Source of the DNA: Ostreococcus lucimarinus
Taxonomy: Eukaryota
Direction: 5' to 3' (one strand)
Assembly: GCA_000092065.1 (NCBI GenBank)
Contig: CP000594.1
Length of the DNA: 64,000 nucleotides
Positions within the stretch are counted from its first letter, which is position 1. The number at the start of each line of letters is the position of its first letter. Shown in pieces: positions 1 through 21,905 of this stretch. A program made the position numbers and the translations under genes. The notes beneath the pieces were generated by a model that had not been told where the DNA came from, did no database searches, and saw only the letters and a program-made list of their open reading frames with translations.

Positions 1-270
1 TTTCGTCCACGCGGCGTCCACTCGCGAACGCGCGGATACCGTTCGCTCTCTCAGCGCCCTCCACGTCCGATCGGTTCGGAAGTGACGCGCGCGCGCAGAA
101 TAGTTTCGCGTCACAACGCAATTATTCATTCCCGTGTTGATTTTATTCTATTCCAGGGGGTATGGGTATAGAGTTTACAGTGCCTTCGTACGAGATATTT
201 CCCAACACCCTTTAGTACCAAAACCTAATTGCGTATCTTCCCTCACTTTCCGACGTCACGCGCGCACGCG

Positions 271-3200: not shown

Positions 3201-6200
3201 TGTCGGTGATGAAGGAAGTGAACTGCGCGGTTACCTCTGGTTGGATAGCGTTTCTGTGACACAGGAACGCTACTCTCCTCAACGAGTCGAGACGCCCTCT
3301 GCACAGCTCGGAGGTATGCAAGAAGGCGTTCACGCAATCACAGATATTGAATATTCGGTCATCAGCCGAAGCGATGGCTCTAAGTGCAAATCGCTGTCGG
3401 ACTGTGATATCATCGTGAGCCTGCGTCAGGTGAAGAGATGCATTGATGCGCAGTCGCGAGGCGATTTCAATATTTCGCCGATGGTGATGTCACAGACGAG
3501 TCCAAACCCGCAACCCGCGACGGTCTCGTGTGGTCGTCACTATGCAGCGAACTGCTCGACTTGTCCGTGGAAGGTGTCCGCGGAAGGTGTCCGTGGAAGG
3601 TGGATGGGCTGGAAATATTGCAATGGTGCGTGCGAATGGAGATGGCACGGGCGTATCAATGCAGGTGGCACGTGCGTGTCAAAGCCAGCTCCAACTCCTC
3701 CGGCAATAACAGTCACGGATCGTACTTCTTCAACACGTGGAACCGTCACTGCACAGATCACAGGGGGGACGATGACGCAATTTTCCACCTCTGCCAATTC
3801 ATCTGAAGTGCAGGACGCATTACGTCATGTCCTCGGAGCGCACGACGGAGGCTTCGTGGTGAGTCCAAGCATGGATTTGTTTGATGCGTGCGGTGTGAGC
3901 GCTCATCGCATGCGCGTTGCGCATGCGAGCGATCTCGAATCGATCCAAGCGCGGTACAAAGAAGTCGTCAATGGTGTGCCCCTGGGAATGCTACCGAAAT
4001 CTTCCCGAGGCCGCACTGCGGAAAATGACGCAGGTCTCCTTAATATAACTGTGAATGTCTCAGGCGGCCTCGCTGAGATAGTCGCGACAGACGAGTCGAG
4101 CGATTTCATCGGTATGGTGCCCCTGGACACGAGAACAGATCTCGATGTGCGCGCCTTGATTCGCGGTGGCGACGCCGTGTTGGCGACGGCTGTTGTGACG
4201 GATGGCGACACAGTCGTACCATGTTCTGTCTCACCTGACCGTATGTCTGCGACTGGCTTCAAACAAGTTCCGAACGGGCAGGCATTCGTTGGCGATGCTT
4301 CTTGCCACATCATTGTGCCACACGAGGAAGTTGCATCTGACGCGACCGTGCACGCTCCGACGGAGTTGAATCAGGATGGTTTTCCCTCACTCGGTGAGTC
4401 CGTGAGTCAATCGAGTCCGACAGACCAGAAACGTCGACGGGACGTCGAAACTATCCGTCGGCGCAGCATGTCAAACTCGCTAAAATTTCCTGGCCATGAT
4501 ACCTGGGCAAAACGAGATCTATCGATGAGTAGATCCGATCTTGGACGATTAACAGTCACAGTGGTTGGTTTTGGTGCGCGTGTGCACAACGGCGCCGCGC
4601 ACCGTAGAGCTGCGAATCACGCGCGGAAACTGTTGAAAACGGAACTCGTCGCGAAGGATGCAGGTCAGGGGAGTCTCAACAATACGAAAAGCAAGTATGA
4701 ATTTCCGGCGGGCGCGGGTCGATTCAGTGATCCATCGACGTGGGGTCCTCGGGGAGTGCCGGACCAAAACTCGACGGATATGCTCTTTATTCCTGCCGGT
4801 TTCAATCTTACTCTGGATGTCGCCGATACGTACTTCCGCGTGTGGGTGATTGAGGGGCACCTAAATTTCCAACGGGGCATGAACATCACGATGCAAGCAG
4901 AAATGATCGTCATCAACGGCGACGACGCACACTTTAGCATTGGGAGTGAAACACGTCCCTTTGAAGATCAGGCGAATATCATCATGCACGGTCACTGGCG
5001 ATCCCTCGGCTTGCCCAAATATGGGGTGAAGTGCATCTCACTGACGAGCGGACGATTAACATTCTATGGTCAGCACGTCACGCCTTGGATGGAACTGGCC
5101 ACTACGGCTTCAGCTAACGCAAACGTTATTTCCGTCAGAAGCAAGGAAGGCAAGACTCCAGATCTCGCCGGATGGAAACCGGGTGCGAGTATTGTGGTGA
5201 CGTCAACCTCTTACGGGGACAGGAGATGTCGGCAAAACCGTACAGACGACTGTCAACCCGAGGAGCGCGTTATTGAATCTGTCACTCCTAGAGGCAACTT
5301 TGCGGACATAACTCTCGATCGACCGTTGAAGTATGAACATTTGGGTGAATCCGTGAATGTGGCGGGAAGCCCCCGCGGGGCTACGATTGAGCGTCGTGCT
5401 GAAGTAATGCTTCTCACGAGAAATATCAACGTGCGCGGCACGACTGAACACAATGGGTATAAGCTCGTCGGCTTTGGCGCGCACACTATGATGATGTCTG
5501 GTCAAATGGTGTTGAAAAATGTTGAATTCGGCCCAAACGTCGGACAGGCCTTCCAACTGGGTCGGTATGCCATCCACTACCACACGCCCAATGAAAAGAT
5601 GTTCAAATATGGTTTGACAGCCTCAAATGACCCGAGGATGCAGGGCGCAGACCAGCGCTTGAGTCGTGTGGAGGGAGTCTCGGTCCACCAATCAAACAAC
5701 CGTGCGATCGCGGTGCATGGTTGTTATCGACTGAACATCATTAACAACGTCGCGTACAACATCTTGGGACATGGGATGTTCGTTGAAGATGGTGTGGAAA
5801 TGTGGAACCTCTTCAAGGACAACGTTGTTTCTCTAGTGCATCGCTCTTTCTCTCTTTTGAACACTGATCAAACACCTGCAGCGTTTTGGATATCGAACGC
5901 TAACAATTTCTTCATCGGTAATCGAGTGTCATCGAGTAATCATCATGGATATTGGTTTGACCCACCAGGAGGACCTACCGGACCGTCGTCGCGAACGCTC
6001 ACGGGGCCTTTGGAAATCCAAAAATTAAGCACTCGGAAGGTACCGCTCGGCCAGTTTGAAAATAACAGAGCCCACTCGAATGGCCACTCCGGACTTTGGA
6101 TTGATCAAATAAACACGGTCTTGCAGCAAGGCGGCAGGCTCAGAATGTACATGGTCGGTACCCACGTATGGAACAATGGAATCAACGGTTTCGGAATGAT

Positions 6201-9200
6201 TACCGGCGTTGGGCATCTACAGATTGTGAATACGTTTGCCATGGGCAACGGGATTGACATCATGTATATCAAGTCGACTGGTGCGACGTGGGCGATGCCG
6301 ACGAATGGTTGGTCCGGTAACTTGGTGTACAACGCCACCCTTCGCGGTGACCCGAAACGCAATACCCAGGCAATCGGCTGTCCGCACGGCGGATGGGTAA
6401 CATTTAACGATATCCTCATTAGTGGCTATCAAAGTAGGTTGCCCCCAATACACCACTGCGCTGTGTGTCCGGGTTTCAAAGGCGGCATGGAAGTTCGTTT
6501 CATGAATATGAAATTCGTCGACAGTGATACAAGGCGGCTCCGCGGTGGTTCAACATCTCGACCGCGCGTATTCTGGAACGGGTACAACTCCAACCTTTTG
6601 CTCGACGTGGATGGGACCCTGAGTGGATCGCCAGGTCCACGATGGGCGCATTCAGTCAAGGGCGCCAGTGATGATCCCAGGAACCGGCCGACGGGTCATT
6701 TTCCGCCAGAACACTGCACCCTCAATGATCACATCGGAGGTGTTGTTTGCGACGCCAACACTGTGTCGTTGCGAGAGGTGCAGTGGCGCCGTATCAAGCC
6801 CATGACCCTTATACCCATGGCGATGCAGACAGCACCTGATCAAAATGCAGGGCAAGTGAACTTTTATCATTACGACCATATCGAGCGACGTTTCAATTGG
6901 CGTACGACATTGGTTATGGTTAAAAGTCCGAACGCGAAGCCATACATCCATAACTTTACGTTTAAGTTTAAAACATGGCAAATTGATGACCCGGACGCTT
7001 GGTACATGGAGGTCCGTGAGCTTCAGCCCAATGAATGGGCTATAATGCGATTCCCCACACTCCGCAATCCGTGGCGTTGGAACTTGAATTCAAGAATACC
7101 GACGGTCACATTGAATAACTACAATCAAAGTGATTATAGTTTCAATGAGAGCAAGGCCATCACCACCACGAGCAACGAATGGCTGAGTTGGAAAAATCAC
7201 AAGTTCGGCGACCACACATACCTACCCGTTGTGGAGACAAGGGATGTTAATGTAAAGCCAGATCCAGGGCTGCTCGATATCATGATATCTGGCAAGCGCG
7301 AACAAGGATGGACACAATCGTACGCCCTCGGTGCCAACTATGATGGCGCGCGTGAAGATATGCCCGTCTGCACCACTTCATGCGGAAGCTCGGCAAAGTC
7401 AACATGTGGCATGAAACGCTACAACTGCAGACCGGGCGACAAGAAACGATGTTTGCCGATGGAAAAGCCTGCAAACTGCTTCGACAATCGACCTATACCC
7501 GAGGTAGATCCCGAGCCTAAAACTTTTTCCTGGTGCGACTCAAACGAAGTTTGGTCTCCGCCGGCATTCGGGGATGACGTCATGATCAAGGCTGGTTGGA
7601 CGGTCATCTTAGATGAAACCTGTCTGGTGACCAACATAACTAGACACGTGGATTTATATGGGTCCCTGTTGCTTCGTGATCCAGGCGCTGGTAAAACCAT
7701 CAAGTTCCGAGCGCAGACCATCCACGTCGCGGCTGGGATTGGATACCTCGAAGCTGGTGACCAGGATGATCCGATATCGAATGGCGACGTTCGTATCGAG
7801 CTTTATGGGAACAGATTTTCTAACGCTCGAATGGGCTACGGTATGGAGACAAAGTACATCGCCGTTCTCGGACACCTCAGCCTCGTCGGAAAGGCGAGCG
7901 TGGAGCAAACGTGGTCGACGCTTAGAAGCGATGCGCCCGCGGGAAGCAGTACAATTGAAACGACAGCCTGTGGCGGTTGGAATACTGGCGACACGCTCAT
8001 GATTGGTGGCGCTATGCACAATTGGACCGGGATCAAGCATGCTTGGTTTTTGAGCGCGGAGCGCTGTGATATTTCCTCCATAGCAGTTGCGAGCGAAGGT
8101 TGCGTCATACGGTGTACTTCCAGCTTCAACTACACGCACTCAGGCCCGGCCCAAAAGCACGAGGTCAGTTTTGGTGGAATGCCAGTGACTCTCATGCATA
8201 GGCGCTCTCCAGGTGGGCGCGTGCAGGTAGTTGGCATGGAAGACAAAAACAAGGCACTGGCAGAGCAGCACTATGGTGCTGTTATTACTATCCTGAAACC
8301 GAAAAAGAAAGGCTATGACGCAAAATTGGCTAAGAGATTCAAGATAGAACTCAAGACGCCCGAGCGCATGCAAGCGGCAACTGAAAGCATGAAACATGAT
8401 CCCCCGCCTGAATGCCACCGCAGACAAGGTTCGGCTGTGATCGTCAATGTCAACTTTGCGCATTGCGGTCAGCGGCACTCTAGTCGCGCGTGTGTTTCTT
8501 TTGCCGCCGGTATTGGCGCTGAGTATCGAGCTACGTTCGCAGAAACGACATCGATGGCACTCGTTGCGAACAACACATTTGCGGACGCCTACAATTTTGC
8601 CGTGAGCGCAGCAGGAGATGGAATTATTATAGAGAATAACGCCATCGCACAAACCTATCACGGTGGATTCGAGGTCTCTGGTGCGAACAACACAATGTCT
8701 AATAACGCAGCTGTTCGATTATTCGACGATGTTAGTGATTACTTTCACGACATTGGGTCGGTTGGTTTCAAGTTGTCGGGATCAGGGAAATGGTATACTA
8801 ACGTCGTCGCCTCCGTGCAGTACACTGGGTTTAAAATTCCTGGATATCCGTGCGAAATGATGACTCCAGACGTGGAGGATGAGGGTTTAGACGTTCGCGC
8901 TGTGACCACCGTTCCCGCCGAACCTACAATGCGTGACCTTCGCGCGTATGGTGGCATGGTAGGCGTGAATCTGCGGGGCGGGCGTACTCGGATGGTCACA
9001 CGTGAACCGGTGGAGGCCTACGCGCCGCTCGAGTGTCGCCAATGGAGCGACTTCGAGATTCGTTCAATGGTTTGGTACGGCGTAACCACGTTTGGTCAGG
9101 GAAAAACGTCTATTGTGTTGAAAAACTTTAATATTTGGGACACCGGACTTGGTTTCGCGCTGTGGATGGTCAACGGTGGCTCAGCCGCAGGTTCGAGCAG

Positions 9201-10095
9201 CGAGCGAGGGCATTTCGCAGAAATCAGTGACACGACGATAATCGGTTCTGCAAGTCGATGTAGAAACGACGGCATTGGGTTTCCCGCGTTTTACTTAACG
9301 GCAGAACCGTACCGGCCGGATCAAGGAGTGAAAACGCCATCGCGCTTTGGTGGAACGACGCTAAGAAACATAAGGTTTCGCGATTTCGGCGCATGTGAAA
9401 AGAAAGGCGTTCGTCAAGTTCGTCAAAAGAATTACGCATTGGTGAACGCCATGAACCGTGGGCGATACGCGTGGGTTTACTACGACAACGCGAACCCCGT
9501 GCGATCTTCTGGCTTGAGCTTTAAGGGTGTACCATTCGAAAACAGGTTACTCATGATCCATCCAAGCTGGGGTCGAATAGGCAATGGGAAATGGGGCTGT
9601 GCCCAAATGTACTGCGACGGACATCGCAACACGTTTGTGATGGATGAGGACGGTTCGCTGCTCGGTGATAACGCCGCATTCGGGACCATCTTGCCCGAAA
9701 ACGAGATTGGTTGGTTCAAGAAACTGGCCTATATCGATCCGCTCAGCCGTGACATTCTTGAAGATTTGGTTCCATTCACACACCAGTGGCTGCCCAACGG
9801 TACCAAACTGACGCCCATGCGAGGGAAGCTCTACGACGAGCCAGGCCATCTCAAAATGGGCTGTCGAAAGGAGGCTTCATGGCAGGCGTGGCTCTGTCCC
9901 GAACACAGGCACAGGCAAATAATCCACGAAAGTTTGGACGGCGATCACACGAAGAGGCGCATCTCCCCAACTTCTGTTCTCACAGAGCTACCATCTCAGA
10001 GCAAGCGTTTCATGTCTCTGTACACTGGGCCTGCGAAATACGGAGGAAACTCCTCGACCGAGGGCAATAACATCCAAGCGCTCGATCGAGGCTAG
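271..10095 (+). CDS. Giant secreted/membrane protein (about 3275 aa) with a G8 domain and multiple right-handed parallel beta-helix (PbH1) repeats; fibrocystin-L/PKHD1L1-like architecture. N-terminal hydrophobic segment suggests a signal/anchor
   Basis: Single 9.8-kb ORF; first in-frame ATG at 271 (track start 229 is TTG). Region IPAGFNLTLDV...GHLNFQRG...GRLTFYG matches the G8 domain pattern; downstream repeats such as NNRAIAVHGCYRLNIINNVAYNILGHGMFVEDG are PbH1-like; N-terminal blocks resemble IPT/TIG. Codon usage and GC are clearly lower than in neighbouring genes. Confidence 0.55.
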   Translation: MTSATPKRRRARRFLYAFGGPTLLFNLMRVFAMSGLVATITMSTAAGAAHGGGASMDEGPAQMHYMPDRFRSLAGGGWLTISSRDVHKSLMPMPGMRGGGEGANESAVSGSAMKDEVKIDLAHGDPDGERSCDLVHYKSSSNELVCSPRAVDCCLDGLTAQELASVSDGCPSVRPELNVEVNGQRLTWGSAGRNGRDTLTDESLKVSHGQTPTIVAVEPAEVRPGELITVYGRTCFGDVWKKDEDDGSSLRDDPDALRDLFSVEASAREDPRQEIGLEKSLYKVLIGDLPCEVRDPLTNRYYRSERGDGPYTAHRQTECGPVNGWFQCRVPQDIDSGLHLLHYETYTRGNAVILSEALRWNASDASKGYVLSVVDDKSEDEDPPRVYNITQLSKDESKQRLLVEGASLDAPNIVVELDGERCGGKKVVSRSGIEVECSGSAGASSQYHYGPPAWLREDWVFKDKNNKFVGGKAWSNALHVLKQRGERYNPLADEVMDALSSALATNGIVRGYKIEKVQQYLTSPSVGSPYVEATSGMKAAHAGLIRHRRIRNAVFERVSGVITAKANGRMRVAIANAAGNNMVLRVRHVSDNLNVFKPWLLVSKFCGTRYSRQNIYRYGFSQWFSVRGNEKYYMEFLMNLDPRYLHNFGGFDVKMEFSYDAGNPAGSIGQLTHTTTPHVPKRAHGGDYVVRFSGASKTAIRFAHNATSSRSNFEWKLFSGGKTIEFNTKNWLHAREHVRKVRDALRWANCTALPEDSKMWDADSTHSSHPFDVENRWLMVRDTQTFKEPTTDWNFIWQRRMGGFRGASIDWSTSYCSTHSQKFDLSSLPPGRVITPSSHFDVPASSRATTNKFLNFAYKVTPGTRATLLLRLKYRSGNRDISTTCAVLLTHEQATGNVKNFDHPACVDLRSVFKDDGEWHFISFDWRTALAGGEYAPSYLGEAMFPHKVQVQLDGIGVGAQRFLGKCPNKQRLAEMYVGDEGSELRGYLWLDSVSVTQERYSPQRVETPSAQLGGMQEGVHAITDIEYSVISRSDGSKCKSLSDCDIIVSLRQVKRCIDAQSRGDFNISPMVMSQTSPNPQPATVSCGRHYAANCSTCPWKVSAEGVRGRWMGWKYCNGACEWRWHGRINAGGTCVSKPAPTPPAITVTDRTSSTRGTVTAQITGGTMTQFSTSANSSEVQDALRHVLGAHDGGFVVSPSMDLFDACGVSAHRMRVAHASDLESIQARYKEVVNGVPLGMLPKSSRGRTAENDAGLLNITVNVSGGLAEIVATDESSDFIGMVPLDTRTDLDVRALIRGGDAVLATAVVTDGDTVVPCSVSPDRMSATGFKQVPNGQAFVGDASCHIIVPHEEVASDATVHAPTELNQDGFPSLGESVSQSSPTDQKRRRDVETIRRRSMSNSLKFPGHDTWAKRDLSMSRSDLGRLTVTVVGFGARVHNGAAHRRAANHARKLLKTELVAKDAGQGSLNNTKSKYEFPAGAGRFSDPSTWGPRGVPDQNSTDMLFIPAGFNLTLDVADTYFRVWVIEGHLNFQRGMNITMQAEMIVINGDDAHFSIGSETRPFEDQANIIMHGHWRSLGLPKYGVKCISLTSGRLTFYGQHVTPWMELATTASANANVISVRSKEGKTPDLAGWKPGASIVVTSTSYGDRRCRQNRTDDCQPEERVIESVTPRGNFADITLDRPLKYEHLGESVNVAGSPRGATIERRAEVMLLTRNINVRGTTEHNGYKLVGFGAHTMMMSGQMVLKNVEFGPNVGQAFQLGRYAIHYHTPNEKMFKYGLTASNDPRMQGADQRLSRVEGVSVHQSNNRAIAVHGCYRLNIINNVAYNILGHGMFVEDGVEMWNLFKDNVVSLVHRSFSLLNTDQTPAAFWISNANNFFIGNRVSSSNHHGYWFDPPGGPTGPSSRTLTGPLEIQKLSTRKVPLGQFENNRAHSNGHSGLWIDQINTVLQQGGRLRMYMVGTHVWNNGINGFGMITGVGHLQIVNTFAMGNGIDIMYIKSTGATWAMPTNGWSGNLVYNATLRGDPKRNTQAIGCPHGGWVTFNDILISGYQSRLPPIHHCAVCPGFKGGMEVRFMNMKFVDSDTRRLRGGSTSRPRVFWNGYNSNLLLDVDGTLSGSPGPRWAHSVKGASDDPRNRPTGHFPPEHCTLNDHIGGVVCDANTVSLREVQWRRIKPMTLIPMAMQTAPDQNAGQVNFYHYDHIERRFNWRTTLVMVKSPNAKPYIHNFTFKFKTWQIDDPDAWYMEVRELQPNEWAIMRFPTLRNPWRWNLNSRIPTVTLNNYNQSDYSFNESKAITTTSNEWLSWKNHKFGDHTYLPVVETRDVNVKPDPGLLDIMISGKREQGWTQSYALGANYDGAREDMPVCTTSCGSSAKSTCGMKRYNCRPGDKKRCLPMEKPANCFDNRPIPEVDPEPKTFSWCDSNEVWSPPAFGDDVMIKAGWTVILDETCLVTNITRHVDLYGSLLLRDPGAGKTIKFRAQTIHVAAGIGYLEAGDQDDPISNGDVRIELYGNRFSNARMGYGMETKYIAVLGHLSLVGKASVEQTWSTLRSDAPAGSSTIETTACGGWNTGDTLMIGGAMHNWTGIKHAWFLSAERCDISSIAVASEGCVIRCTSSFNYTHSGPAQKHEVSFGGMPVTLMHRRSPGGRVQVVGMEDKNKALAEQHYGAVITILKPKKKGYDAKLAKRFKIELKTPERMQAATESMKHDPPPECHRRQGSAVIVNVNFAHCGQRHSSRACVSFAAGIGAEYRATFAETTSMALVANNTFADAYNFAVSAAGDGIIIENNAIAQTYHGGFEVSGANNTMSNNAAVRLFDDVSDYFHDIGSVGFKLSGSGKWYTNVVASVQYTGFKIPGYPCEMMTPDVEDEGLDVRAVTTVPAEPTMRDLRAYGGMVGVNLRGGRTRMVTREPVEAYAPLECRQWSDFEIRSMVWYGVTTFGQGKTSIVLKNFNIWDTGLGFALWMVNGGSAAGSSSERGHFAEISDTTIIGSASRCRNDGIGFPAFYLTAEPYRPDQGVKTPSRFGGTTLRNIRFRDFGACEKKGVRQVRQKNYALVNAMNRGRYAWVYYDNANPVRSSGLSFKGVPFENRLLMIHPSWGRIGNGKWGCAQMYCDGHRNTFVMDEDGSLLGDNAAFGTILPENEIGWFKKLAYIDPLSRDILEDLVPFTHQWLPNGTKLTPMRGKLYDEPGHLKMGCRKEASWQAWLCPEHRHRQIIHESLDGDHTKRRISPTSVLTELPSQSKRFMSLYTGPAKYGGNSSTEGNNIQALDRG

Positions 10096-11349
10096 GAGCT
10101 CGAGCGCTTGTTCCACCGCGGCGTCTCCGATGGCGTGCACGGCGATCTGAAGACCCGCTGCGTCCGCGAGAGTGGCTTGCTTGCGCAAAATTTTCTCTCT
10201 TTTACCTCTGGGGTACATCAAATGTCCAGACGTCGACCCGTCGTCTAGATACGGCGCCATCATCGCCGCGGTTCGCCCGCCCAAGCTACCGTCGAGAAAC
10301 GCCTTGACGCCGCCCAATCGAACCCGAGAAGCCGCGGTCTCATTCTCTCGCGTCCAACCACTGTTCCACGCGACGTGGGATTGAACGCTTGCCCAGTCCC
10401 CGAGTGGCATGTACGACGTGATGCGAATCGGAAGGTCGCCGACCGCGTCCCATCGCTCGAGCGTCTCAAAATCTTCCCAGAGCTGCGCGTATCCATCCGC
10501 GCCCGCCACCAAGCTCTCGATGTCCCCGAAATCACCCACGGTCGTGATTCCTTTACTGAGTAAGTACTCAAACGCCCGTTTAAACGCTTCATCGCGCTCG
10601 CTCCGCGACCGCTTCGGCACCGCGTTCGACATCGCCGCCGTGGCCAACTCCTTTAGAATCCCAGTCGGCGCCCCCTCGTCGTCCAACTCCACGATCCCAC
10701 CCGCGATCACCGTCTTCGCGCCCGTGATCTTCGCGATTTCCAACGCCGCCTCGCTCGCGAATCCGACGTGTCCGCACGTCCGCGTGACCCACACCTTCGC
10801 TCCGACGAATCGTTCGTCGCCGCGCGTCCACGCGTTCGACGGCGTCTCGCCGCCCCACGACGTCTCGTCCCAACCGTGTCCCAGCACCCATTTTTCCTTC
10901 CCAGCGTCGATCGCTCGCGCGAGGGTCTCTATGAACTCTTCTTTGGACCGCACGCCTCGCAGATCGAGCGCGTCGAGCGCGAATCCGCCCGTGACGACGT
11001 GCGCGTGCGCGTCGACGAAGCCGCTTCGCAGCGCGCGCCCGCCGCAGTCCAACACGACGCCGAATCTCGTCGACGGAACGTCTTCGACGGCGATGATTCG
11101 CCCGTGTCGGGATACCGTGATGTCTTTGATCGCGCCCGCGTCGCCGACGGCGCAGTTCGCGAACGTGGTGACGTCGGCGTCGCGTTCGGCGTCGGTCGAG
11201 TGATGACGCGCGCGAGCTGGACCGGTGGTTTTAGCGCCGTAGCCGAGCGGGCAGGCGGAGAATCGAGCCTCGAACGCGGGCCAGGCGATCGCGAGGAGTG
11301 CGCTCGCGATTGCGAGGGCGAACGCGACGTCGCGGGGGGTCCATCGCAT
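9988..11349 (-). CDS. Metal-dependent amidohydrolase-family protein (Amidohydro_3-like), N-terminal signal/TM; appears C-terminally truncated
   Basis: FVDAHAHV metal-binding motif near N-terminus, HAIGDAAVEQALE motif near the end; expected C-terminal roughly 100-150 aa of the fold are absent. ORF 3' end overlaps the 3' end of the giant + strand gene by 108 nt. Confidence 0.55.
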   Translation of the reverse strand: MRWTPRDVAFALAIASALLAIAWPAFEARFSACPLGYGAKTTGPARARHHSTDAERDADVTTFANCAVGDAGAIKDITVSRHGRIIAVEDVPSTRFGVVLDCGGRALRSGFVDAHAHVVTGGFALDALDLRGVRSKEEFIETLARAIDAGKEKWVLGHGWDETSWGGETPSNAWTRGDERFVGAKVWVTRTCGHVGFASEAALEIAKITGAKTVIAGGIVELDDEGAPTGILKELATAAMSNAVPKRSRSERDEAFKRAFEYLLSKGITTVGDFGDIESLVAGADGYAQLWEDFETLERWDAVGDLPIRITSYMPLGDWASVQSHVAWNSGWTRENETAASRVRLGGVKAFLDGSLGGRTAAMMAPYLDDGSTSGHLMYPRGKREKILRKQATLADAAGLQIAVHAIGDAAVEQALELLASIERLDVIALGRGVSSVFRRPSVQRHETLALRW

Positions 11350-11479: not shown

Positions 11480-13918
11480 CTATTTGTTGTTGCTTTCGGC
11501 TTCGGAAATTTTTCTGAGAGCCTCCTTTTGAGACGCGTCGAACGCGTGCTGCATGTCTCGCTCGTTCCAACGCAAACATCTTCGAAGCGAATTGATGAAA
11601 TCGCCCGTTTGATCGGCGTAGTTGATGGTGGGAATCGGGTATTGGCTCATGCGGACGAACACGGAATCCCCGCTCTCGAGCTCGCAGCGATCGCGGCCGT
11701 CGAAGGAGACCCAGGCGGAACATCGAGCGTCTTGCGCAACGCGTAGCTCGATTTCGACGCTGTCGGGGAAAATGACGGGTCGGAAAGACAGCGTGTGTGG
11801 GCAAATCGGAGTCATCAAGATTGCTGGAACGTTCGGGTGCACCATCGAACCTCCAGCGGACACGCTGTAAGCAGTGGAACCGGTGGCGGTGGCGACAATG
11901 ACGCCGTCGGCTTGAATAGTCGTGATGAGTTCTCCGCGATCGTACGCCTCAATTTGAGATAAATACGGACTTGGACCTCGATCAACGAGCAACTCATTCA
12001 AGACGGTGATCTTTTTCGTGAATTCGCCCGTTCCACCGCTTCCGATCTTGTCCTTTGCCTTGACCAGTGTACACTCGAGACGCATGCGAAGCGTAATCGG
12101 CACGCCTCCTTGGATGTTCACCACGGGCTTCCCTCGTCCGATGGATTGAAGCAAGCTCGAAGCCATTTCGTCCGATGGGTGGCTTGTCAAAAACCCGAGC
12201 GAGCCGAAATGGAACCCGAGAAGCGGCGGCACTGGCCCTTGGAATAACTTGCTCGCGTGCAGGATGACGCCGTCACCGCCCAAACACACGATGATATCAG
12301 TTGTACCCCAGTCCTCTTGAGGGATGATGCCGTCCACTTTGCGCAGTTTTTCGGCATTTTTTAAAACTACCGCTCTGTGCAGGGTGTCTTCGAGGATGTC
12401 TGCGTTCGCCAATTCATCCATGACGTCTTCGTCGAGGACGACGGTGATCCCCATCGTCATCATCGCGTGCGCGATCTCTATGAGTTCTGGCAGCAGGCCA
12501 AAGCCAATCTTCTTCAGTAAGAAAACACGCCGCGGTTGTTGACGCCATACCAATATCAATTGTTGCGTGCTCGGGTGAGATATCTTCAGTTCCCGGTTCT
12601 CGACGAGCTCGCGCGTGCACGAGAAACCGTCGGTTCGAATTATGTACATATCCGGAGCGTCCGTCAGAGAGCTGTGTTCGCCAACGACAATTTCTTCCCC
12701 GTTTGCAGTACTATCGAATTCATGATCCGCGATAAACTTTTCTCCGTTGAATGTCTTGTTATTCAACTTCGCGGCGTACTCGCGAACAAACGCCTCCTGT
12801 GCGATCGATCCGAAGTCGCACACGAGCGATTCAGCCGAGAGCGCCTCGTCGACGTCCATTCCTTGGTGCACACGCCAGCACGCGACGAGTGATCCGGTCC
12901 GTCCAATTCCAGCTTTACAGTGCACCAGGATCGGTCGCATCTTGTCATCGTTTACAGTCTCGATGAATCGTTTCACATCCTCCTCCGTCGGCGGCTCCAT
13001 GTCGGGAATCGGTATGTGTACGATGTTGAGCGCGCTCGCGCCGAACGTCCCTTGGCCCGAGCCTCCCCCGAACGCTTGTAGCCACTGGTTATCTCTATCG
13101 CTCCCGCGCAAATCGATGACAGTTTTGAAGTTGTTGCGAACCAGCCAAGCTCGACCTTCCGCGGTGGGCTGCCCTCCTCGATAATACGCCGCAGCGCTCT
13201 CGTCGCCAACTTCGGTGACGATTTGCAAGTTTGGGATCGCCGTTCCGCTCGGCGCGTTCGGCGCGCGTAATCGCGGATGCACCAAGTCCAGCGACGCGCT
13301 TCGAAGCGCCTCGAAGCGATGCCGCACCGTTACCGAGCATCCGCCGATCTCTTCGCACGACTGTTCCAGTATCACTCGCAACTCCCACAGCGCCGTGCGA
13401 AGACGCGACAACTCCTTACTTCGCAAGTTGTTACTGAACCTCCCGGCGACTTCCGCGGCGGACGCGTACACGACCATCCTCCCCAACGCCTCCGTCACCT
13501 CTCCCGAGCATGAAGCGAGCGTGTTATTCGAAAAGTCCACCTCGCACTCCGCCGATAAGACGTCGGCGAACGACGCCAGCACCGCGCGTTCTAATTGCGC
13601 CGCCAACTGCGGCAACGGGACGTAACTCTGATCCGAGGTCGAAGGAAACTCCACGACATCTCCCTTTTCCTGTTTCTTCGCCCCGGTATCGACCGACGGG
13701 AACATTTCAGACTCTGAAATCGCGCGTCGCTCGCCGCCGCCTCGACCTCGCGACGCGTCCCGCGCGTTCGGGCGCGCACCTCCGAAGGCCGAGCGCCGTC
13801 CGGGCAAATGCGCGCGCCGCGCCGTCACTGTGCATACATTAGACCGTTCACGCGCGAGTTTCGTCGTCGACGACGCGCTGACGCGCGATGCCGCGGCGAT
13901 CATCGTCCCGCTCGCCAT
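11480..13918 (-). CDS. NAD kinase (NADK2-like, predicted plastid transit peptide) with N-terminal PFA-DSP/tyrosine-phosphatase-like domain
   Basis: GGDGVILHASKLF (NAD kinase GGDG motif) and downstream NAD_kinase C-terminal blocks (ADGVIVATATGSTAYSVSAGG). N-terminal half has YYRGGQP...ILVHCKAGIGRTGSLVACWRV (CX5R phosphatase P-loop). Ala/Ser/Arg-rich N-terminus resembles a transit peptide. Confidence 0.75.
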   Translation of the reverse strand: MASGTMIAAASRVSASSTTKLARERSNVCTVTARRAHLPGRRSAFGGARPNARDASRGRGGGERRAISESEMFPSVDTGAKKQEKGDVVEFPSTSDQSYVPLPQLAAQLERAVLASFADVLSAECEVDFSNNTLASCSGEVTEALGRMVVYASAAEVAGRFSNNLRSKELSRLRTALWELRVILEQSCEEIGGCSVTVRHRFEALRSASLDLVHPRLRAPNAPSGTAIPNLQIVTEVGDESAAAYYRGGQPTAEGRAWLVRNNFKTVIDLRGSDRDNQWLQAFGGGSGQGTFGASALNIVHIPIPDMEPPTEEDVKRFIETVNDDKMRPILVHCKAGIGRTGSLVACWRVHQGMDVDEALSAESLVCDFGSIAQEAFVREYAAKLNNKTFNGEKFIADHEFDSTANGEEIVVGEHSSLTDAPDMYIIRTDGFSCTRELVENRELKISHPSTQQLILVWRQQPRRVFLLKKIGFGLLPELIEIAHAMMTMGITVVLDEDVMDELANADILEDTLHRAVVLKNAEKLRKVDGIIPQEDWGTTDIIVCLGGDGVILHASKLFQGPVPPLLGFHFGSLGFLTSHPSDEMASSLLQSIGRGKPVVNIQGGVPITLRMRLECTLVKAKDKIGSGGTGEFTKKITVLNELLVDRGPSPYLSQIEAYDRGELITTIQADGVIVATATGSTAYSVSAGGSMVHPNVPAILMTPICPHTLSFRPVIFPDSVEIELRVAQDARCSAWVSFDGRDRCELESGDSVFVRMSQYPIPTINYADQTGDFINSLRRCLRWNERDMQHAFDASQKEALRKISEAESNNK

Positions 13919-14647
13919 CCCTCGTCACCGGGCGCCGCACACGATTCCCGCGCGCTCGCGCGTCCGCGGGACTCGCGAGACCTCGCGACGGGCGCGAACG
14001 ATGCTCTCGCGCTCGTTCCACGCGCTCTTCCGGCGATCGCGGCGTGCGCGTGCGTCGACGCGCGCGCGTGTGCGCCCGGGCGCGACGCGACGGCGAAGCG
14101 CGAAAACGCCCTCGCGCGCGTCGCGACGCCCAGCTTCGCGAAACCGAAACGTCCGAACCTTTAAGCGCCGTCATCGCAATCTACTCGAAGCACGATCAGT
14201 GTCGCGAACCACACCATCGATCGAACGCGCGACGAGCACCGCTTCGCGAAACATGAAACCGATCGACCCACCGTCAGGTTCACGAACCTGCAAGCCCCGA
14301 ACCCGCGCGCGGGTTCGATTCGACATCAACGAACCTCGCGCGGTTCAGCGAACCTTCGATCGGGTGACAAAAATAGCATCCCGAATGATGCGCGCCATCG
14401 TGGATCGCGGAATGGATGTCCGATCGAAAAAATACGACCGCGATCCCACGGATGCGTGGGTGTGCGAACATCGATATCGATATCATCGATGACCGGGGTT
14501 TCGATCGTTTCGTCGCCCCGTCCGCGATCGCGCGCGCGGGCCCGGTCGCGCGCGCGATTGCGATTACAAGGGGCCTCCCGACGCGTCGCATCGCGACGCG
14601 CGCACGCCATGGCCCTCTCTCTCGCGCAGGTCGCGCCCGCGGCGCAG

Positions 14648-14987
14648 GTGCGTCGCGTCTCGCACCGTCGCGCGCGTCGCGCGCGTCTCTCGGCGTCGCG
14701 AACGCGCGCGCGTCGTCGCGAACGGCGGCATCGCTCGGCATCGGATAGGATGGCCATCGGCGCGTCGTCGCGGGTCGACGCGCGACCGGGACGCGACGAC
14801 GCGCGACGTCGACGGAGGGCGAGAGAAAAATCGACGACCGCGGACGCGCGGGTGACTGACGAGAGGTTTCGCGGCGCAGTTTTCTTCGCGTAAGCGCGTC
14901 TGCGGCGCGCCGGCGGCGGCGTCCCGGACGCGCGTCGTCGTCCCGCGGGCTCGAGCGGTCGCGGCGCGCGCGAGCGGAGAGAAGAAG
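14648..14987 (+). other. Candidate 5' intron of the CSP41b gene (hypothetical): exon 1 ATG 14609..14647, donor CAG|GTGCGT, acceptor AAG|TCG
   Basis: Donor consensus GTGCGT at 14648 and an in-phase AG acceptor at 14985-14987 would join MALSLAQVAPAAQ to SVLIVNTNGGG. The resulting transit peptide would be unusually short, so this is low confidence. Confidence 0.25.
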
Positions 14988-15959
14988 TCGGTGTTGATCG
15001 TGAACACGAATGGTGGCGGACACGCGAACATCGGGTTCTGGCTGGCGAAGACGCTGGCGGGGGCTGGGCACGACGTGACGATGAACGTCGTCGGCGCCGA
15101 GGACGATAAGAAGATGGCCAAGACTCCGTTCTCGTTGTTCGATGAGATTCGAGGGATGGGTGTGAAGACGGTGTGGGCGAACCCCGATGAAGTGGCGTCC
15201 AAGCATGCCGGGGCGAAGTTCGACGTGGTCGTCGATAACAACGGTAAGGACATGGACACCGTTGGTCCGGTGGCGGATTTCGCCGTCGCCGCGGGGGCGT
15301 CGCAGTTCTTGTTCGTCTCGAGCGCGGGTATCTACAAGCCCACGCCGTGCCCGCCGCACGTCGAGGGCGATGCCGTGAAGGAGACGAGCGGCCACGCCGT
15401 CGTCGAGGCGCACTTGAAGACGTTGCCGTTGAAGATGAGCTCTTTCCGCCCGCAATACTTGACGGGATACGGATCGAACAAGGACTGCGAGGAGTGGTTC
15501 TTCGATCGCGCCGTGCGCGGCCGACCGATCTTGGTCCCGGGCTCGGGTGATCAGCTCTCGTCGGTGACGCACGCCGAAGATTTGGCCACCATGATCGCCG
15601 CCGCCGTCGGCAACGACGCCGCCGCTGGGGAAATCTTCAACTGCGTGACGACGAAAGCCGTCACGCTGAACGGCATGGCGGAACTTTGCGCCAAGGCTGC
15701 GGGCGTCGAACCGAACGTGATCAACTACGACCCGAAGGATGTCCCGGATGTCGAAGTTAAGAAGGCGTTCCCGTTCCGCCCGATCCACTTCTACAGCTCC
15801 AGCGCCAAGGCGCAAGCCGTGCTCGGCTGGTCGCCCAAGCACCCGGATTTGGCCGCCGAGCTCAAGGAACGCTTCGCGTACTACAAGTCCATCGGACGCG
15901 ATAAGAAGGAGATGTCGTTCGAAACCGACGACAAAATTCTCGCCGCGATCGGCAAGTAA
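14988..15959 (+). CDS. CSP41B: CSP41b-like chloroplast stem-loop-binding protein (NAD-dependent epimerase/dehydratase fold), main exon; transit-peptide exon not resolved
   Basis: LIVNTNGGGHANIGFWLAK..., FRPQYLTGYGSNKDCEEWFFDR, IGRDKKEMSFETDDKIL closely match plant CSP41b. No in-frame ATG upstream of the GTG at 14991 (stop at 14853), so the 5' end/transit peptide must lie in an upstream exon. Confidence 0.8.
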   Translation, partial: SVLIVNTNGGGHANIGFWLAKTLAGAGHDVTMNVVGAEDDKKMAKTPFSLFDEIRGMGVKTVWANPDEVASKHAGAKFDVVVDNNGKDMDTVGPVADFAVAAGASQFLFVSSAGIYKPTPCPPHVEGDAVKETSGHAVVEAHLKTLPLKMSSFRPQYLTGYGSNKDCEEWFFDRAVRGRPILVPGSGDQLSSVTHAEDLATMIAAAVGNDAAAGEIFNCVTTKAVTLNGMAELCAKAAGVEPNVINYDPKDVPDVEVKKAFPFRPIHFYSSSAKAQAVLGWSPKHPDLAAELKERFAYYKSIGRDKKEMSFETDDKILAAIGK

Positions 15960-16043: not shown

Positions 16044-17222
16044 TCATCGGTTTGGAACTTGGGAGAAACCACCTAGAAAGTTGAGCGCCAAATTCTTCGC
16101 CGAGTCCGCCGTCAGGGATTGTATTTCACGATCCAAGTGCGCGCGATGCGTCGCCCGCGGACTGGCGTAGGCGTAACTCGCGTGTCGAAGCGTGACCTCG
16201 ACCCCTCGCGTCAACGACTCGTACGCCTCGCCGAGATCGGAATCTTTGAACCTTTCTAACTCATCCATATCACCGTCGATGATGTGCCAATGCTCGCCCG
16301 GACGCGCGGTGGTGGCGATGAGATTCGCCGCGGCGAGCGAGCGCGAGGCAAAGTTTTCGGTCGGGATCACGCAGACCCCGTAACCGTCGACGTCTTCGGC
16401 GACTTCGAAACCGTTTTCTCTAAATATTTCGCGGCACCTCTCCACCGCGCGTCCGCGCGAATTCAAGACGAACACCTTGCTCCCGCGCGCCAGCGCGGCG
16501 TGCAAGAGCGGTTTCAGGTCCTCGTACACGACCTGCTCGCCCGCGCTCGTCCCCGGCTCGCCGTCCGCCGTCGTCTCCATCCGACGCGCGTCCACCGACG
16601 CTTGCAAACCCGCCGGCATCATCCGTCGCCCGTCCCACCCGACGCTCGACTCCACCTCCTCCCCCCACTTCAACACGCTCATCAACTTTATCTCCGGCCA
16701 GCTCGACACGATCTCGTCCACCGTCAACGGCCTCGTTCTTCGCTCGAACCGCTGCTCGTTTGAAAACACCGGCCCCGGCCGCCCGCCGCTCGTCGTCCGC
16801 CCGCCGATGATCGCCTCGTCCGCGATCACCCGCACCATCACCACCGCCTCGCACGACGTCGACTCCGCGATCGCTCGTCGCATCGTTCGCATCGCCTCGA
16901 CGTACGACGACGCGTCTCCCGGGACGTGCTCCGGCCAGCGCTCGCGCGCCACCGCGTGGCTCACCCTCGTCATCTCCACCGTCGCGTCCACGACGGCGTC
17001 GTACGCGAACAGCACGACGTCGCGCGACCGCTCGATGGCGTCGTCGTCGCTCGCGTCGCTCGCGTCCGCCGCGCGTCGCGCGACGCGTCGGCGTCGCGCC
17101 GACGCCGACGCCGATGTCCCGCTCGATCGCGTCGCGCGGTCGCGCGCGCCTCGCGCGGTCGCGGTCGCGCGCGCGCGCGGCTCCGGACGCGCGCGCGACG
17201 CGTCGATCGCCCGCGCGTCCAT
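16044..17222 (-). CDS. Hypothetical conserved alpha/beta protein (about 392 aa), function unknown
   Basis: C-terminal 330 aa of the 720-aa minus ORF have balanced, non-repetitive composition (VLFAYDAVVDATVEM..., KVFVLNSRGRAVERCREIFRENGFEV...). The upstream portion of the ORF is an Arg-rich antisense artefact of the JmjC gene region. Start placed at ATG 17222. Confidence 0.45.
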   Translation of the reverse strand: MDARAIDASRARPEPRARATATARGARDRATRSSGTSASASARRRRVARRAADASDASDDDAIERSRDVVLFAYDAVVDATVEMTRVSHAVARERWPEHVPGDASSYVEAMRTMRRAIAESTSCEAVVMVRVIADEAIIGGRTTSGGRPGPVFSNEQRFERRTRPLTVDEIVSSWPEIKLMSVLKWGEEVESSVGWDGRRMMPAGLQASVDARRMETTADGEPGTSAGEQVVYEDLKPLLHAALARGSKVFVLNSRGRAVERCREIFRENGFEVAEDVDGYGVCVIPTENFASRSLAAANLIATTARPGEHWHIIDGDMDELERFKDSDLGEAYESLTRGVEVTLRHASYAYASPRATHRAHLDREIQSLTADSAKNLALNFLGGFSQVPNR

Positions 17223-17652
17223 GGCGCGCGCGCGTGTCGCGCCGCGCGCCGCGACGACGCTCGGAGGGACGCGGGACGCGCGATGCGACGAAAAGATATT
17301 TTGTTTCGCGCCGGACGCCGCGAGCGTTTTAATCGCGCGACACACTCGTCGTCGCGCGGCCGATTCGGGACGCGCGCGACGCCGCGGGGCGCGACGTTGC
17401 GCGGAAAAACATATCGAAGATCGATCTCGCACGGCGGCATACGCGCGTACGGCGCGCGAGGCGTCGCGAGACGGGACGACGATGGGGAATCGCGCGAGGC
17501 GAGCGTTTCTGAAGACGAGACGACGCGCGGGACGGGGGGGTGGACGCCGCGCGCGCGCGAGGATTTCGGGACGTCGGGAGGGGCGTTTCCGGAGATTAAC
17601 GTCGTGCAGTTCGTGGACGCGGAAGACGGGGCGCCGGTGAGTTGTTTTGGGA

Positions 17653-18761
17653 TGGATTACGAGACGCTGCGGCGGCGCGCGGCGGAGGCGGCGTTCGACG
17701 AGACGTCGACGACGCCCGAGTATCGTGGGTTTTTGAATCACGCGAGACGGTGCGTCGATGGGAGCGGAAAGATCGACTGGGGTTCGGTGACGCGCGTGGG
17801 GGGGCTGGCTGGGTCGAGAGAGGTGCGGCGGGCGCGCGGGGTGGACCCTCGGGACGTCGAGGCGGCGTGTTTGCGAGGCGAAGGCGAACCTTTGATCGTC
17901 GAGGACGGAGGGAAAGATTGGGCCAAGTGGGATTTTGAAACGCTTCAAAACGAAATCGGTGATTTTGAGGTGTTGTGTAACGATCGAGCGCCCGCGCGGC
18001 GACGAGAGATCGATGGATCCAAGCAGCGGTCGCACCTGATTCCGTTTCGGGCGTACGCCGACTACGTACGAAAGCGCGACGGCGTCGCCGGCACAGTCTT
18101 TGACGATCGCCGCACGCCGTTTTATGCAAACGGCATGCGCGTATTCAGCGAGTGCAAGCGCGCCGACGCCCTCTCGCGGGCGTTTCCACGACCTTATTTC
18201 ACGCACGAGTGCGATAATACGGAGACGCTGCTCATGGCGACAACGAACGAGCTCGGGTCGATACTCAAATTTGACTCGGAAATCGCGCTCAGAATGCGTG
18301 ACAGCGTCTCAAAATCGCTCGACAAGATGTTTGTCGGGCCTCGAGGCGCACTCACGCGCCTTCATTACGACGCCGGGGACGCTCACGGTTGGCTGGGACA
18401 GGTCGAGGGGCGGAAGCTCTTCGTGTTTTATCCGCCCAGCGCGTCGCCGATGCTTTATCCGATTGAAGACTCGCACGCCAGCGTCGATCCACTGGAGCCA
18501 GACTACGATCGATTTCCACTATTTCGCGAAGCGCAATCGCGCGCGCGAGTGTGCGTGCTGAATCCGGGAGAAGTCGTACTGTGTCCTCGACGATGGTGGC
18601 ACTACGCCGTGGCCCTGGACACTAGCGTCACGGTTATGAGGAATTGGTACAACGTCAATACCAACGCCCAGGCGTTGGTCGAGCAGATATGCTCCACGAT
18701 TAAACAAACAGTAGACAATAGAGCGAAAGGATCCGTGCCTCGAAACGAAGCGTCTCGATGA
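17653..18761 (+). CDS. JmjC (cupin) domain protein, JMJD5/HSPBAP1-like hydroxylase
   Basis: FVGPRGALTRLHYDAGDAHGWLGQVEGRKLFVFYPP (HxD iron site), WWHYAVALDTSVTV; N-terminal W-rich JmjC lead-in. Start at first ATG after the Arg-rich artefactual N-terminal part of the ORF. Confidence 0.65.
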
Positions 18762-21519: not shown

Positions 21520-21885
21520 ATGCGCGCGAGGCGAACGGGCGCGGCGGCGGCGAACGAGGACGACGCGCGATTGGCCAAGTATCTCGTCGTGAACGCGGAA
21601 AACGTCGCGCACAACGCGCGAGTGAGCGCGCGAGTGTTCACGTACCTGAGCATCGTGTCCGGAATCGCGATCGGCGCGCTCGGATACACCGGAGTGCGAG
21701 GGTTCGCGGCGCACGGGGTGTTTATGCTGGCGAGCGCGTGCGCGGTGGCGGCGAGCAAGTGCGAGGGACGACCGACGAGTTTCTTTCCGTCCGTCGATAA
21801 GGTGTTCCTGGACGGACCGAACGCTGGATTGCCGACGTTTGTGTTGTTTTGGACGCTGTCGTATAATTGCTGGCACTTGTTTTAG
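21520..21885 (+). CDS. EMC6: ER membrane protein complex subunit 6 (EMC6, Rab5ip family)
   Basis: Two TM segments and C-terminal PTFVLFWTLSYNCWHLF aligning to human EMC6 FTYVLFWTFLYGMVHVY; central GIAIGALGYTGVRGF matches ATAGILGLTGLYGF. Confidence 0.7.
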   Translation: MRARRTGAAAANEDDARLAKYLVVNAENVAHNARVSARVFTYLSIVSGIAIGALGYTGVRGFAAHGVFMLASACAVAASKCEGRPTSFFPSVDKVFLDGPNAGLPTFVLFWTLSYNCWHLF

Positions 21886-21905
21886 ACGGTCGGAGGAGAG
21901 GGATC

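Follow-up and report, generated by a model that had tools for sequence, protein, structure and literature searches.

The window analyzed here, a stretch of 64,000 nucleotides of contig CP000594.1 (GenBank assembly GCA_000092065.1) of Ostreococcus lucimarinus, encodes on its minus strand an 812-residue protein in which a cysteine-dependent phosphatase domain precedes a NAD kinase (EC: 2.7.1.23). The domain belongs to the Pfam family PTP-NADK; both this assignment and the fused architecture are as good as certain. Read from the sequence, the phosphatase site of the algal protein is complete, whereas the orthologous domain of streptophyte NADK2 proteins has lost its catalytic cysteine and its acidic residue. 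In chlorophytes the domain could be directed at NADP(H), the product of the kinase to which it is fused; this reading is put forward tentatively and is weighed against others below.

Architecture and family of the fused protein

The first base of residue n lies at position 13918-3(n-1) of the window. The features of the gene are as follows.

11480..13918, minus strand: complete coding sequence of an NADK2-type NAD kinase with an N-terminal PTP-NADK module, 812 amino acids plus stop, single exon (open reading frame list, Pfam architecture)
13637..13918, minus strand: residues 1-94, poorly conserved Ala/Ser/Arg/Gly-rich N-terminus (region identity, composition, model confidence of about 25)
13253..13636, minus strand: residues 95-222, helical N-lobe packing with the phosphatase fold (AlphaFold2 model, conservation)
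12764..13252, minus strand: residues 223-385, Cys-dependent phosphatase fold (atypical DSP/PTP), Pfam PTP-NADK
13001-13003, minus strand: Asp306, candidate general acid (IPIPDM), gtc on the plus strand, 28 residues upstream of the catalytic Cys
12893..12922, minus strand: P-loop His333-Cys334-Lys-Ala-Gly-Ile-Gly-Arg340-Thr-Gly342 with the CX5R signature, read from the sequence
12920-12922, 12917-12919 and 12899-12901, minus strand: codons of His333, Cys334 (aca on the plus strand) and Arg340
12683..12763, minus strand: residues 386-412, short variable linker (7-41% identity between orthologues other than the nearly identical P0105)
11549..12682, minus strand: residues 413-790, NAD kinase catalytic region (PF01513 and PF20143 above cutoff)
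12269..12280, minus strand: GGDG motif, residues 547-550, read from the sequence and invariant in the Mamiellophyceae alignment

The preliminary description had pointed to the interval 12748-13231, which corresponds on the minus strand to residues ~230-390 of one uninterrupted open reading frame (ORF). It had proposed a Cys-X5-Arg phosphatase-fold domain N-terminal to a canonical GGDG NAD kinase on a single polypeptide, and the ORF list, the Pfam matches and the motif positions bear this out. The strings quoted in it are present as given (YYRGGQP, residues 245-251; IPIPDM, 302-307; HCKAGIGRTG, 333-342; GGDG, 547-550). The 812-residue protein aligns without gaps with its Mamiellophyceae orthologues. 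Public gene calls of the same length, differing by 6 substitutions, are found in marine data of JGI, Tara and ENA, so the single-exon, intron-free gene model agrees with them; such calls, 99% identical to the protein, are abundant in marine metagenomes. Identity to the proteins of Micromonas pusilla and Bathycoccus prasinos is 57-59%, and none of the named hits exceeds 59%. The whole window is GC-rich (0.52-0.73), with few introns.

The family assignment rests on PF22741 (PTP-NADK, ‘DSP-PTPase phosphatase fused to NAD+ kinase’), which matches residues 223-380 with 179.8 bits (cutoff 27, E=3.5e-53) over profile positions 1-163 of 163. The N-terminal domain has the PTP/DSP alpha-beta fold, and the kinase profiles PF01513 (residues 481-589) and PF20143 (640-766) lie on the same 812-residue ORF, in line with the definition of the family. 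UniRef calls plant members ‘DSP-PTPase phosphatase fused to NA...’; its entry for the Micromonas orthologue is named ‘Tyrosine specific protein phosphatases domain-containing protein’. PF22741 was presumably derived from the work of Burroughs & Aravind (2023).

Membership in the plant and fungal atypical dual-specificity phosphatases (PFA-DSP/Siw14), which the preliminary description had suggested, was not sustained. The expected hits to a PTP-type family (PF22741) and to NAD_kinase (PF01513) were obtained, but PF03162 (Y_phosphatase2) remained below its gathering cutoff (25.5 against 27 bits) and ranked eighth of the ten families listed. The P-loop and the acid loop also differ: Siw14-like hits carry HCKAGKHRTG and NIPMSGWK, and the window protein carries HCKAGIGRTG and IPIPDM. 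The domain is kept out of PFA-DSP because the distant Siw14 hits named in JGI have the HCKAGKHRTG loop and lack the Asp. PFA-DSP/Siw14 enzymes are inositol pyrophosphate phosphatases with a basic Lys/His in the P-loop, a feature missing from the window loop, whereas the acid-loop Asp is present in the window protein and absent from the Siw14-like hits. A PDB sequence search matched 25xa, a ‘dual specificity protein phosphatase family protein’, with E=7e-16, Cdc14B and DUSP23 with ~4e-8 to 8e-8, and Arabidopsis PFA-DSP1 with ~2e-4.

By sequence the kinase half is a canonical NAD kinase. Region 413-790 comprises a conserved pre-kinase segment (APDMYIIRTDGFSCTRE...SHPSTQQ), NAD_kinase (481-589; 45.1 bits, cutoff 25.5) and NAD_kinase_C (640-766; 124 bits, cutoff 23.7), and is matched by the human NADK structures 9cr3, 8kgc and 3pfn with E~1e-80. 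Invariant kinase elements are GGDG (547-550), which is the ATP/phosphoryl-transfer motif of NAD kinases (PMC4072752), NELLVDRG (641-648) and TGSTAYSVSAGG (679-690). The kinase region is 70-92% identical to that of orthologues other than P0105.

By sequence the gene is the Mamiellophyceae orthologue of the plastid-type NAD kinase clade (AtNADK2/CreNADK1). This placement was made by alignment of the module and the pre-kinase segment, both of which are shared with ‘NAD kinase 2 chloroplastic’ of Zea mays and ‘putative NAD kinase 2, chloroplastic’ of Curcuma longa. For CreNADK1 and AtNADK2 a plastid location has been established experimentally (preprint 10.64898/2026.08.14.744979). The leader of the algal protein has 9-31% identity to its counterparts in orthologues (P0105, 99% identical, being set aside), compared with 60-88% in the folded domains; it is rich in Ala (14), Arg (13), Ser (11) and Gly (10 of 90 residues), with a predicted local distance difference test score (pLDDT) of ~25 in the full-length AlphaFold2 model. 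Since it is unconserved, disordered and Ala/Ser/Arg-rich, the segment 1-94 is probably an organelle (plastid) transit peptide. At the position of the linker (386-412), Micromonas and streptophyte proteins have long insertions.

The fusion as such is not new. In a survey of NAD kinases from 24 Plantae species, among them Ostreococcus lucimarinus, O. tauri and Micromonas, Li et al. (2014, PLoS One, PMC4072752) described subfamily II (the AtNADK2 clade) as carrying extra N-terminal DSPc, PTPc/DSPc or ADK catalytic domains gained by gene fusion. With this survey and a Pfam family devoted to the fusion, the window protein is not a new kind of object. Other accounts describe the plant NADK2 extension only as a transit peptide and a calmodulin-binding region (PMC6610520; PMC5890153), and the 2026 Chlamydomonas preprint (10.64898/2026.08.14.744979), which places the orthologous CreNADK1 in the chloroplast, contains neither the word ‘phosphatase’ nor the word ‘domain’. 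A full-text literature search returned nothing for ‘PTP-NADK’, for ‘DSP-PTPase’ or for ‘pseudophosphatase’ together with ‘NAD kinase’. Neither PMC4072752 nor other literature found discusses the active-site integrity or the function of the domain. The possibility raised in the preliminary description, that the domain was already annotated and catalytically characterised in plant NADK2, thus holds for the annotation, whereas no catalytic characterisation was found in the literature. Two modest additions are made here, the contrast between intact chlorophyte and dead streptophyte sites and the suggested origin of the two-lobed module in bacteria; they may already be published.

Active site and its fate in the green lineage

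The phosphatase site is sequence-complete, with Asp306 as general acid, Cys334 as nucleophile, Arg340 and Thr341. The HCX5R(S/T) signature is present as H333-C334-KAGIG-R340-T341. Asp306 is invariant in 14 of 14 Mamiellophyceae sequences and in bacterial homologues, and its aligned counterpart in PDB 25xa is the Asp of a PDF motif; its role as general acid is inferred from this conservation and position. The loop HCKAGIGRTG does not vary among the chlorophyte fusions or the nearest bacterial homologues. Besides the P-loop and Asp306, the elements RGGQP, DLR...DRDNQW and Cys347 (ACWR) do not vary across the 14 Mamiellophyceae orthologues, and Cys347 is likewise invariant in algal and bacterial homologues. 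The window protein retains Cys334 and is not a STYX-like pseudophosphatase.

Between the window protein and those of Micromonas and Bathycoccus, the PTP domain is 60-63% identical, the helical lobe 45-52%, the pre-kinase segment 74-83% and the kinase 70-74%, compared with 9-23% for the leader and 7-15% for the linker. These identities indicate a purifying constraint on the phosphatase domain nearly as strong as that on the kinase.

The lobe that precedes the phosphatase fold appears to form one unit with it. An AlphaFold2 model of residues 95-410, built on a 57-sequence alignment (pLDDT 87.9, predicted template modelling score (pTM) 0.85), gives a four-to-five-helix lobe (residues ~102-209; model numbering 8-115) packed with the atypical-DSP alpha-beta fold into one compact body. 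The lobe carries the motifs LWxLR...VRHRxExLRSAxLD...IPN and is kept in algal and streptophyte NADK2 and in stand-alone bacterial proteins of ~250 residues. Its Cys125, Cys137 and Cys194 are invariant across Mamiellophyceae, as is Cys367 of the PTP domain; all four are candidate redox or disulfide sites.

Homologues of the module were collected by an exhaustive HMMER search with residues 90-406 as query (3425 proteins at E<=1e-3). Parsing of the acid-loop and P-loop residues in all fetched sequences resulted in three groups. The chlorophyte group consists of Ostreococcus-like, Micromonas and Bathycoccus proteins and an MMETSP transcript (P0151), with no named core chlorophyte such as Chlamydomonas or Chlorella. 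In all chlorophyte NADK fusions examined, the sequences I/L-P-x-x-D and HCKAGIGRTG occur, i.e., both Cys and Asp are kept.

The streptophyte proteins examined are those of Zea mays, Curcuma longa, Brassica cretica, Camellia sinensis, the lycophyte Diphasiastrum complanatum and the zygnematophyte alga Spirogloea muscicola (entries P0224, P0241/P0319, P0232, P0196, P0223, P0334 and P0336). PF22741 is matched by streptophyte NADK2, among others by the proteins of Zea mays, Curcuma longa and Diphasiastrum, at E-values between 1e-47 and 1e-63. In regard to the question left in the preliminary description, the plant N-terminal extension therefore belongs to the same family as the window domain, but this family is not PFA-DSP. 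In every streptophyte NADK2 examined, Cys334 is replaced by Ser, Asp306 by F, V, I or G, and Cys347 by Arg (SRWR). The loop reads HSQGGVGRAC, HSREGVGRTS, HSKEGVWRTS or QSRGGLGRTS, and the pattern is mostly HS(Q/K/R)(G/E)GVxR(A/T)(C/S). In these proteins the match stops short of the final two helices of the PTP profile (profile positions 1 to ~140 of 163), and a long, low-complexity, disordered linker follows. Because the nucleophile is changed to Ser and the acid is lost, the plant ‘N-terminal extension’ is, by the usual sequence criteria, a pseudophosphatase. The Cys-to-Ser switch is already present in Spirogloea; a profile search of named homologues gave mostly fragments, which limits a finer placement.

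The third group is bacterial. Stand-alone proteins of ~250 residues occur mainly in metagenome-assembled genomes of Eremiobacterota (‘Vulcanimicrobiota’, Xenobia) and Armatimonadota (loci L001-L016), and can be aligned with the algal module across helical lobe and PTP fold alike, at 37-47% identity. Like the window module, they have an HCKAG(I/V)GRTG loop, the acid Asp (D166 in the bacterial-homologue alignment) and the ACWR cysteine; unlike it, they have no NAD kinase attached or nearby. Since these proteins share both lobes and the P-loop, the comparison suggests that bacteria were the source of the two-lobed module, which would have been taken over in one piece.

Proteins of another kind also carry the domain. 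In 430-600-residue sequences (P0169 of the red alga Cyanidium caldarium, P0153, P0158, P0165, P0171-P0175 and P0348-P0355), a PTP-NADK-type domain is C-terminal, preceded by a long region without a Pfam match, and no NAD kinase is present. Several of them have Ser-Cys or Cys-Cys instead of His-Cys before the loop, and some possibly come from other eukaryotes.

Possible functions of the phosphatase module

The N-terminal module could be an NADP(H) 2'-phosphatase working against the fused kinase, a proposal that has some way to go before it could be called probable. In chlorophytes the module would be a working cysteine phosphatase, forming a thiophosphate intermediate at Cys334; Asp306 would protonate the leaving group, and Arg340 together with the P-loop amides would hold the phosphate. 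The most parsimonious substrate would be the 2'-phosphate of NADP(H), since NADP is the product of the kinase on the same chain. One polypeptide would then both make and unmake NADP, and reciprocal control of its halves, for example via oxidation and reduction of a low-pKa Cys334 at light/dark transitions, would govern the plastid NADP pool. In streptophytes the module would have lost Cys and Asp and been kept as a pseudophosphatase, and plastid NADP(H) would be dephosphorylated by the unrelated CCR4C. Such a kinase/phosphatase pair would be analogous to PFK-2/FBPase-2 and to the archaeal fusion of NADP phosphatase and NAD kinase, MJ0917.

The NADP-phosphatase proposal draws support from the complete and invariant active site in the chlorophyte fusions and the nearest bacterial homologues, and from the purifying selection on the domain. 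Fusion of a phosphatase and a kinase that act on NADP has a precedent in archaeal MJ0917 (cited in PMC4072752), and NCBIfam contains a model for a ‘bifunctional NADP phosphatase/NAD kinase’ (NF010678). The size of the chloroplast NADP pool depends on light/redox-activated NADK2 versus NADP phosphatase activity, and the light-driven change of NAD into NADP was seen for the first time in a green alga (PMC10628217). CCR4C is the plastid NADP(H) phosphatase of Arabidopsis (PMC12557515), and this fits the proposal, because Arabidopsis belongs to the lineage where every NADK2 PTP site examined is dead. The fuller scheme, in which the chlorophyte module is a plastid NADP(H) 2'-phosphatase redox-gated at Cys334 and the streptophyte module is an NADP(H)-sensing pseudophosphatase with catalysis passed to CCR4C, is unlikely to hold in all its parts.

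Photosynthetic electron flow is limited by the way the chloroplast NADP pool is controlled, and the plastid NADP phosphatase has been a long-standing gap, filled for Arabidopsis only in 2025 with CCR4C. If the live domain does remove the 2'-phosphate of NADP(H), algae would have a one-protein NADP rheostat, and the N-terminal extension of plant NADK2 would be a pseudophosphatase sensor.

Several points weigh against the NADP-phosphatase proposal. No report on the enzymology or activity of the PTP-NADK module was found in the literature. Streptophytes retain the module without Cys and Asp, so the function that the green lineage as a whole has conserved is probably binding or regulation and not catalysis. 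Having a kinase and a phosphatase on the same chain invites a futile cycle if the two are not reciprocally regulated, and this regulation is only proposed. Genes next to the bacterial homologues encode PALP, acid phosphatase, PNPOx, PPDK_N and MFS proteins and none of NAD metabolism, so the bacterial gene context lends the substrate no support. The other fusions of the domain are with PilZ, FGE-sulfatase and tandem PTP repeats, NADK being its only NAD-related partner. Most structural neighbours of the domain are phosphatases of proteins or phosphoinositides; DUSP23/VHZ, KAP, Tk-PTP, SsoPTP and TpbA are among the nearest solved folds. The full-length AlphaFold2 model (14-sequence Mamiellophyceae alignment, pLDDT 50.4, pTM 0.34) is too poor to show phosphatase-kinase packing or communication between the active sites.

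Retention of the module throughout the green lineage even without Cys334 and Asp306 could be explained if it were a regulatory sensor, which binds a phospho-ligand and/or senses redox state via Cys334 (with Cys347 and Cys125/137/194) and switches the kinase, catalysis serving only to reset it. Cys-to-Ser mutants of PTPs and STYX pseudophosphatases classically bind substrate without hydrolysing it. Cys347 is lost along with Cys334 in streptophytes, the helical lobe and the PTP fold form in the model a rigid unit suited to docking, and activation of NADK2 by light and redox state has been reported (PMC10628217). However, the invariant catalytic set of chlorophytes (Asp, His-Cys, Arg, Thr) is more than binding or redox sensing needs, and the ligand and the disulfide partner are hypothetical. 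A sensor is the main rival explanation, held to be only slightly less likely than the NADP-phosphatase proposal. A dual-specificity protein phosphatase, acting on its own kinase domain or on other plastid phosphoproteins, would agree with the class of the nearest solved folds, with the resemblance of HCKAGIGRTG to Cdc14/DUSP23-type loops (as in the CDC14B and DUSP23 matches above) and with the general-acid Asp typical of protein DSPs, and is regarded as improbable.

Two further explanations carry far less weight. Hydrolysis of inositol pyrophosphates or other polyphosphates in the manner of PFA-DSP/Siw14 is very unlikely: the PF03162 score is below its cutoff, PFA-DSP1 is only remotely similar, the P-loop is without the Lys/His of HCKAGKHRTG, and the acid loop is IPIPDM in place of NIPMSGWK. 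The streptophyte orthologues tolerate the loss of catalytic residues, as would be expected if the module were a catalytically inert relic, a structural scaffold of the kinase and nothing else. Nevertheless, the chlorophyte catalytic residues are invariant at a genus-level divergence that has randomised the leader and the linker, and the nearest stand-alone bacterial proteins have an identical P-loop; a relic is likewise very unlikely.

Neighbouring genes and comparison with known systems

The region 13919-14990 is intergenic and separates the NAD kinase gene from a divergent epimerase-like gene (14991-15959, plus strand); runs of CG dinucleotides (cgcgcg...) dominate in it. The start of the epimerase-like ORF, called mechanically at a GTG at 14991, is probably downstream of the true start, and its leader may fall in 13919-14990. 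Other neighbours are an Amidohydro_3 hydrolase (9988-11349, minus strand), a Cupin_8/JmjC-like protein (16926-18761, plus strand) and a protein with WD40 and DUF3337 (21867-24035, plus strand), none with an evident functional tie to NAD kinase. A 3288-residue ORF (229-10095, plus strand) has two G8 domains and a CEMIP-type beta-helix in Pfam, i.e., it encodes a giant fibrocystin/CEMIP-like protein in a picoalga; it sits in the part of the window with the lowest GC content (0.52-0.56 versus 0.56-0.73 elsewhere).

Among known systems, the solved phosphatases DUSP23/VHZ, KAP, Tk-PTP and SsoPTP are 15-24% identical to the window domain; they are protein phosphatases and have neither the helical N-lobe nor a kinase. 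The archaeal bifunctional NADP phosphatase/NAD kinase MJ0917 likewise has a phosphatase N-terminal to a NAD kinase, and the kinase halves are homologous. Its phosphatase half has a metal-dependent IMPase-type fold, a different fold that has no match in the window protein. The MJ0917-type model of NCBIfam (NF010678) was rejected for the window protein, as it scores 128.8, well short of the family's cutoff of 493, and the match covers only profile positions 311-550 of 570, i.e., the kinase half. The resemblance to MJ0917 is at most convergence.

PTP-NADK proteins and subfamily II NAD kinases have the same domain, in the same order and the same clade, and the window protein does not differ from them in architecture. 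Streptophyte NADK2 shares with it an orthologous helical lobe, PTP fold, pre-kinase segment and kinase; of the two, only the window protein has the full catalytic set.

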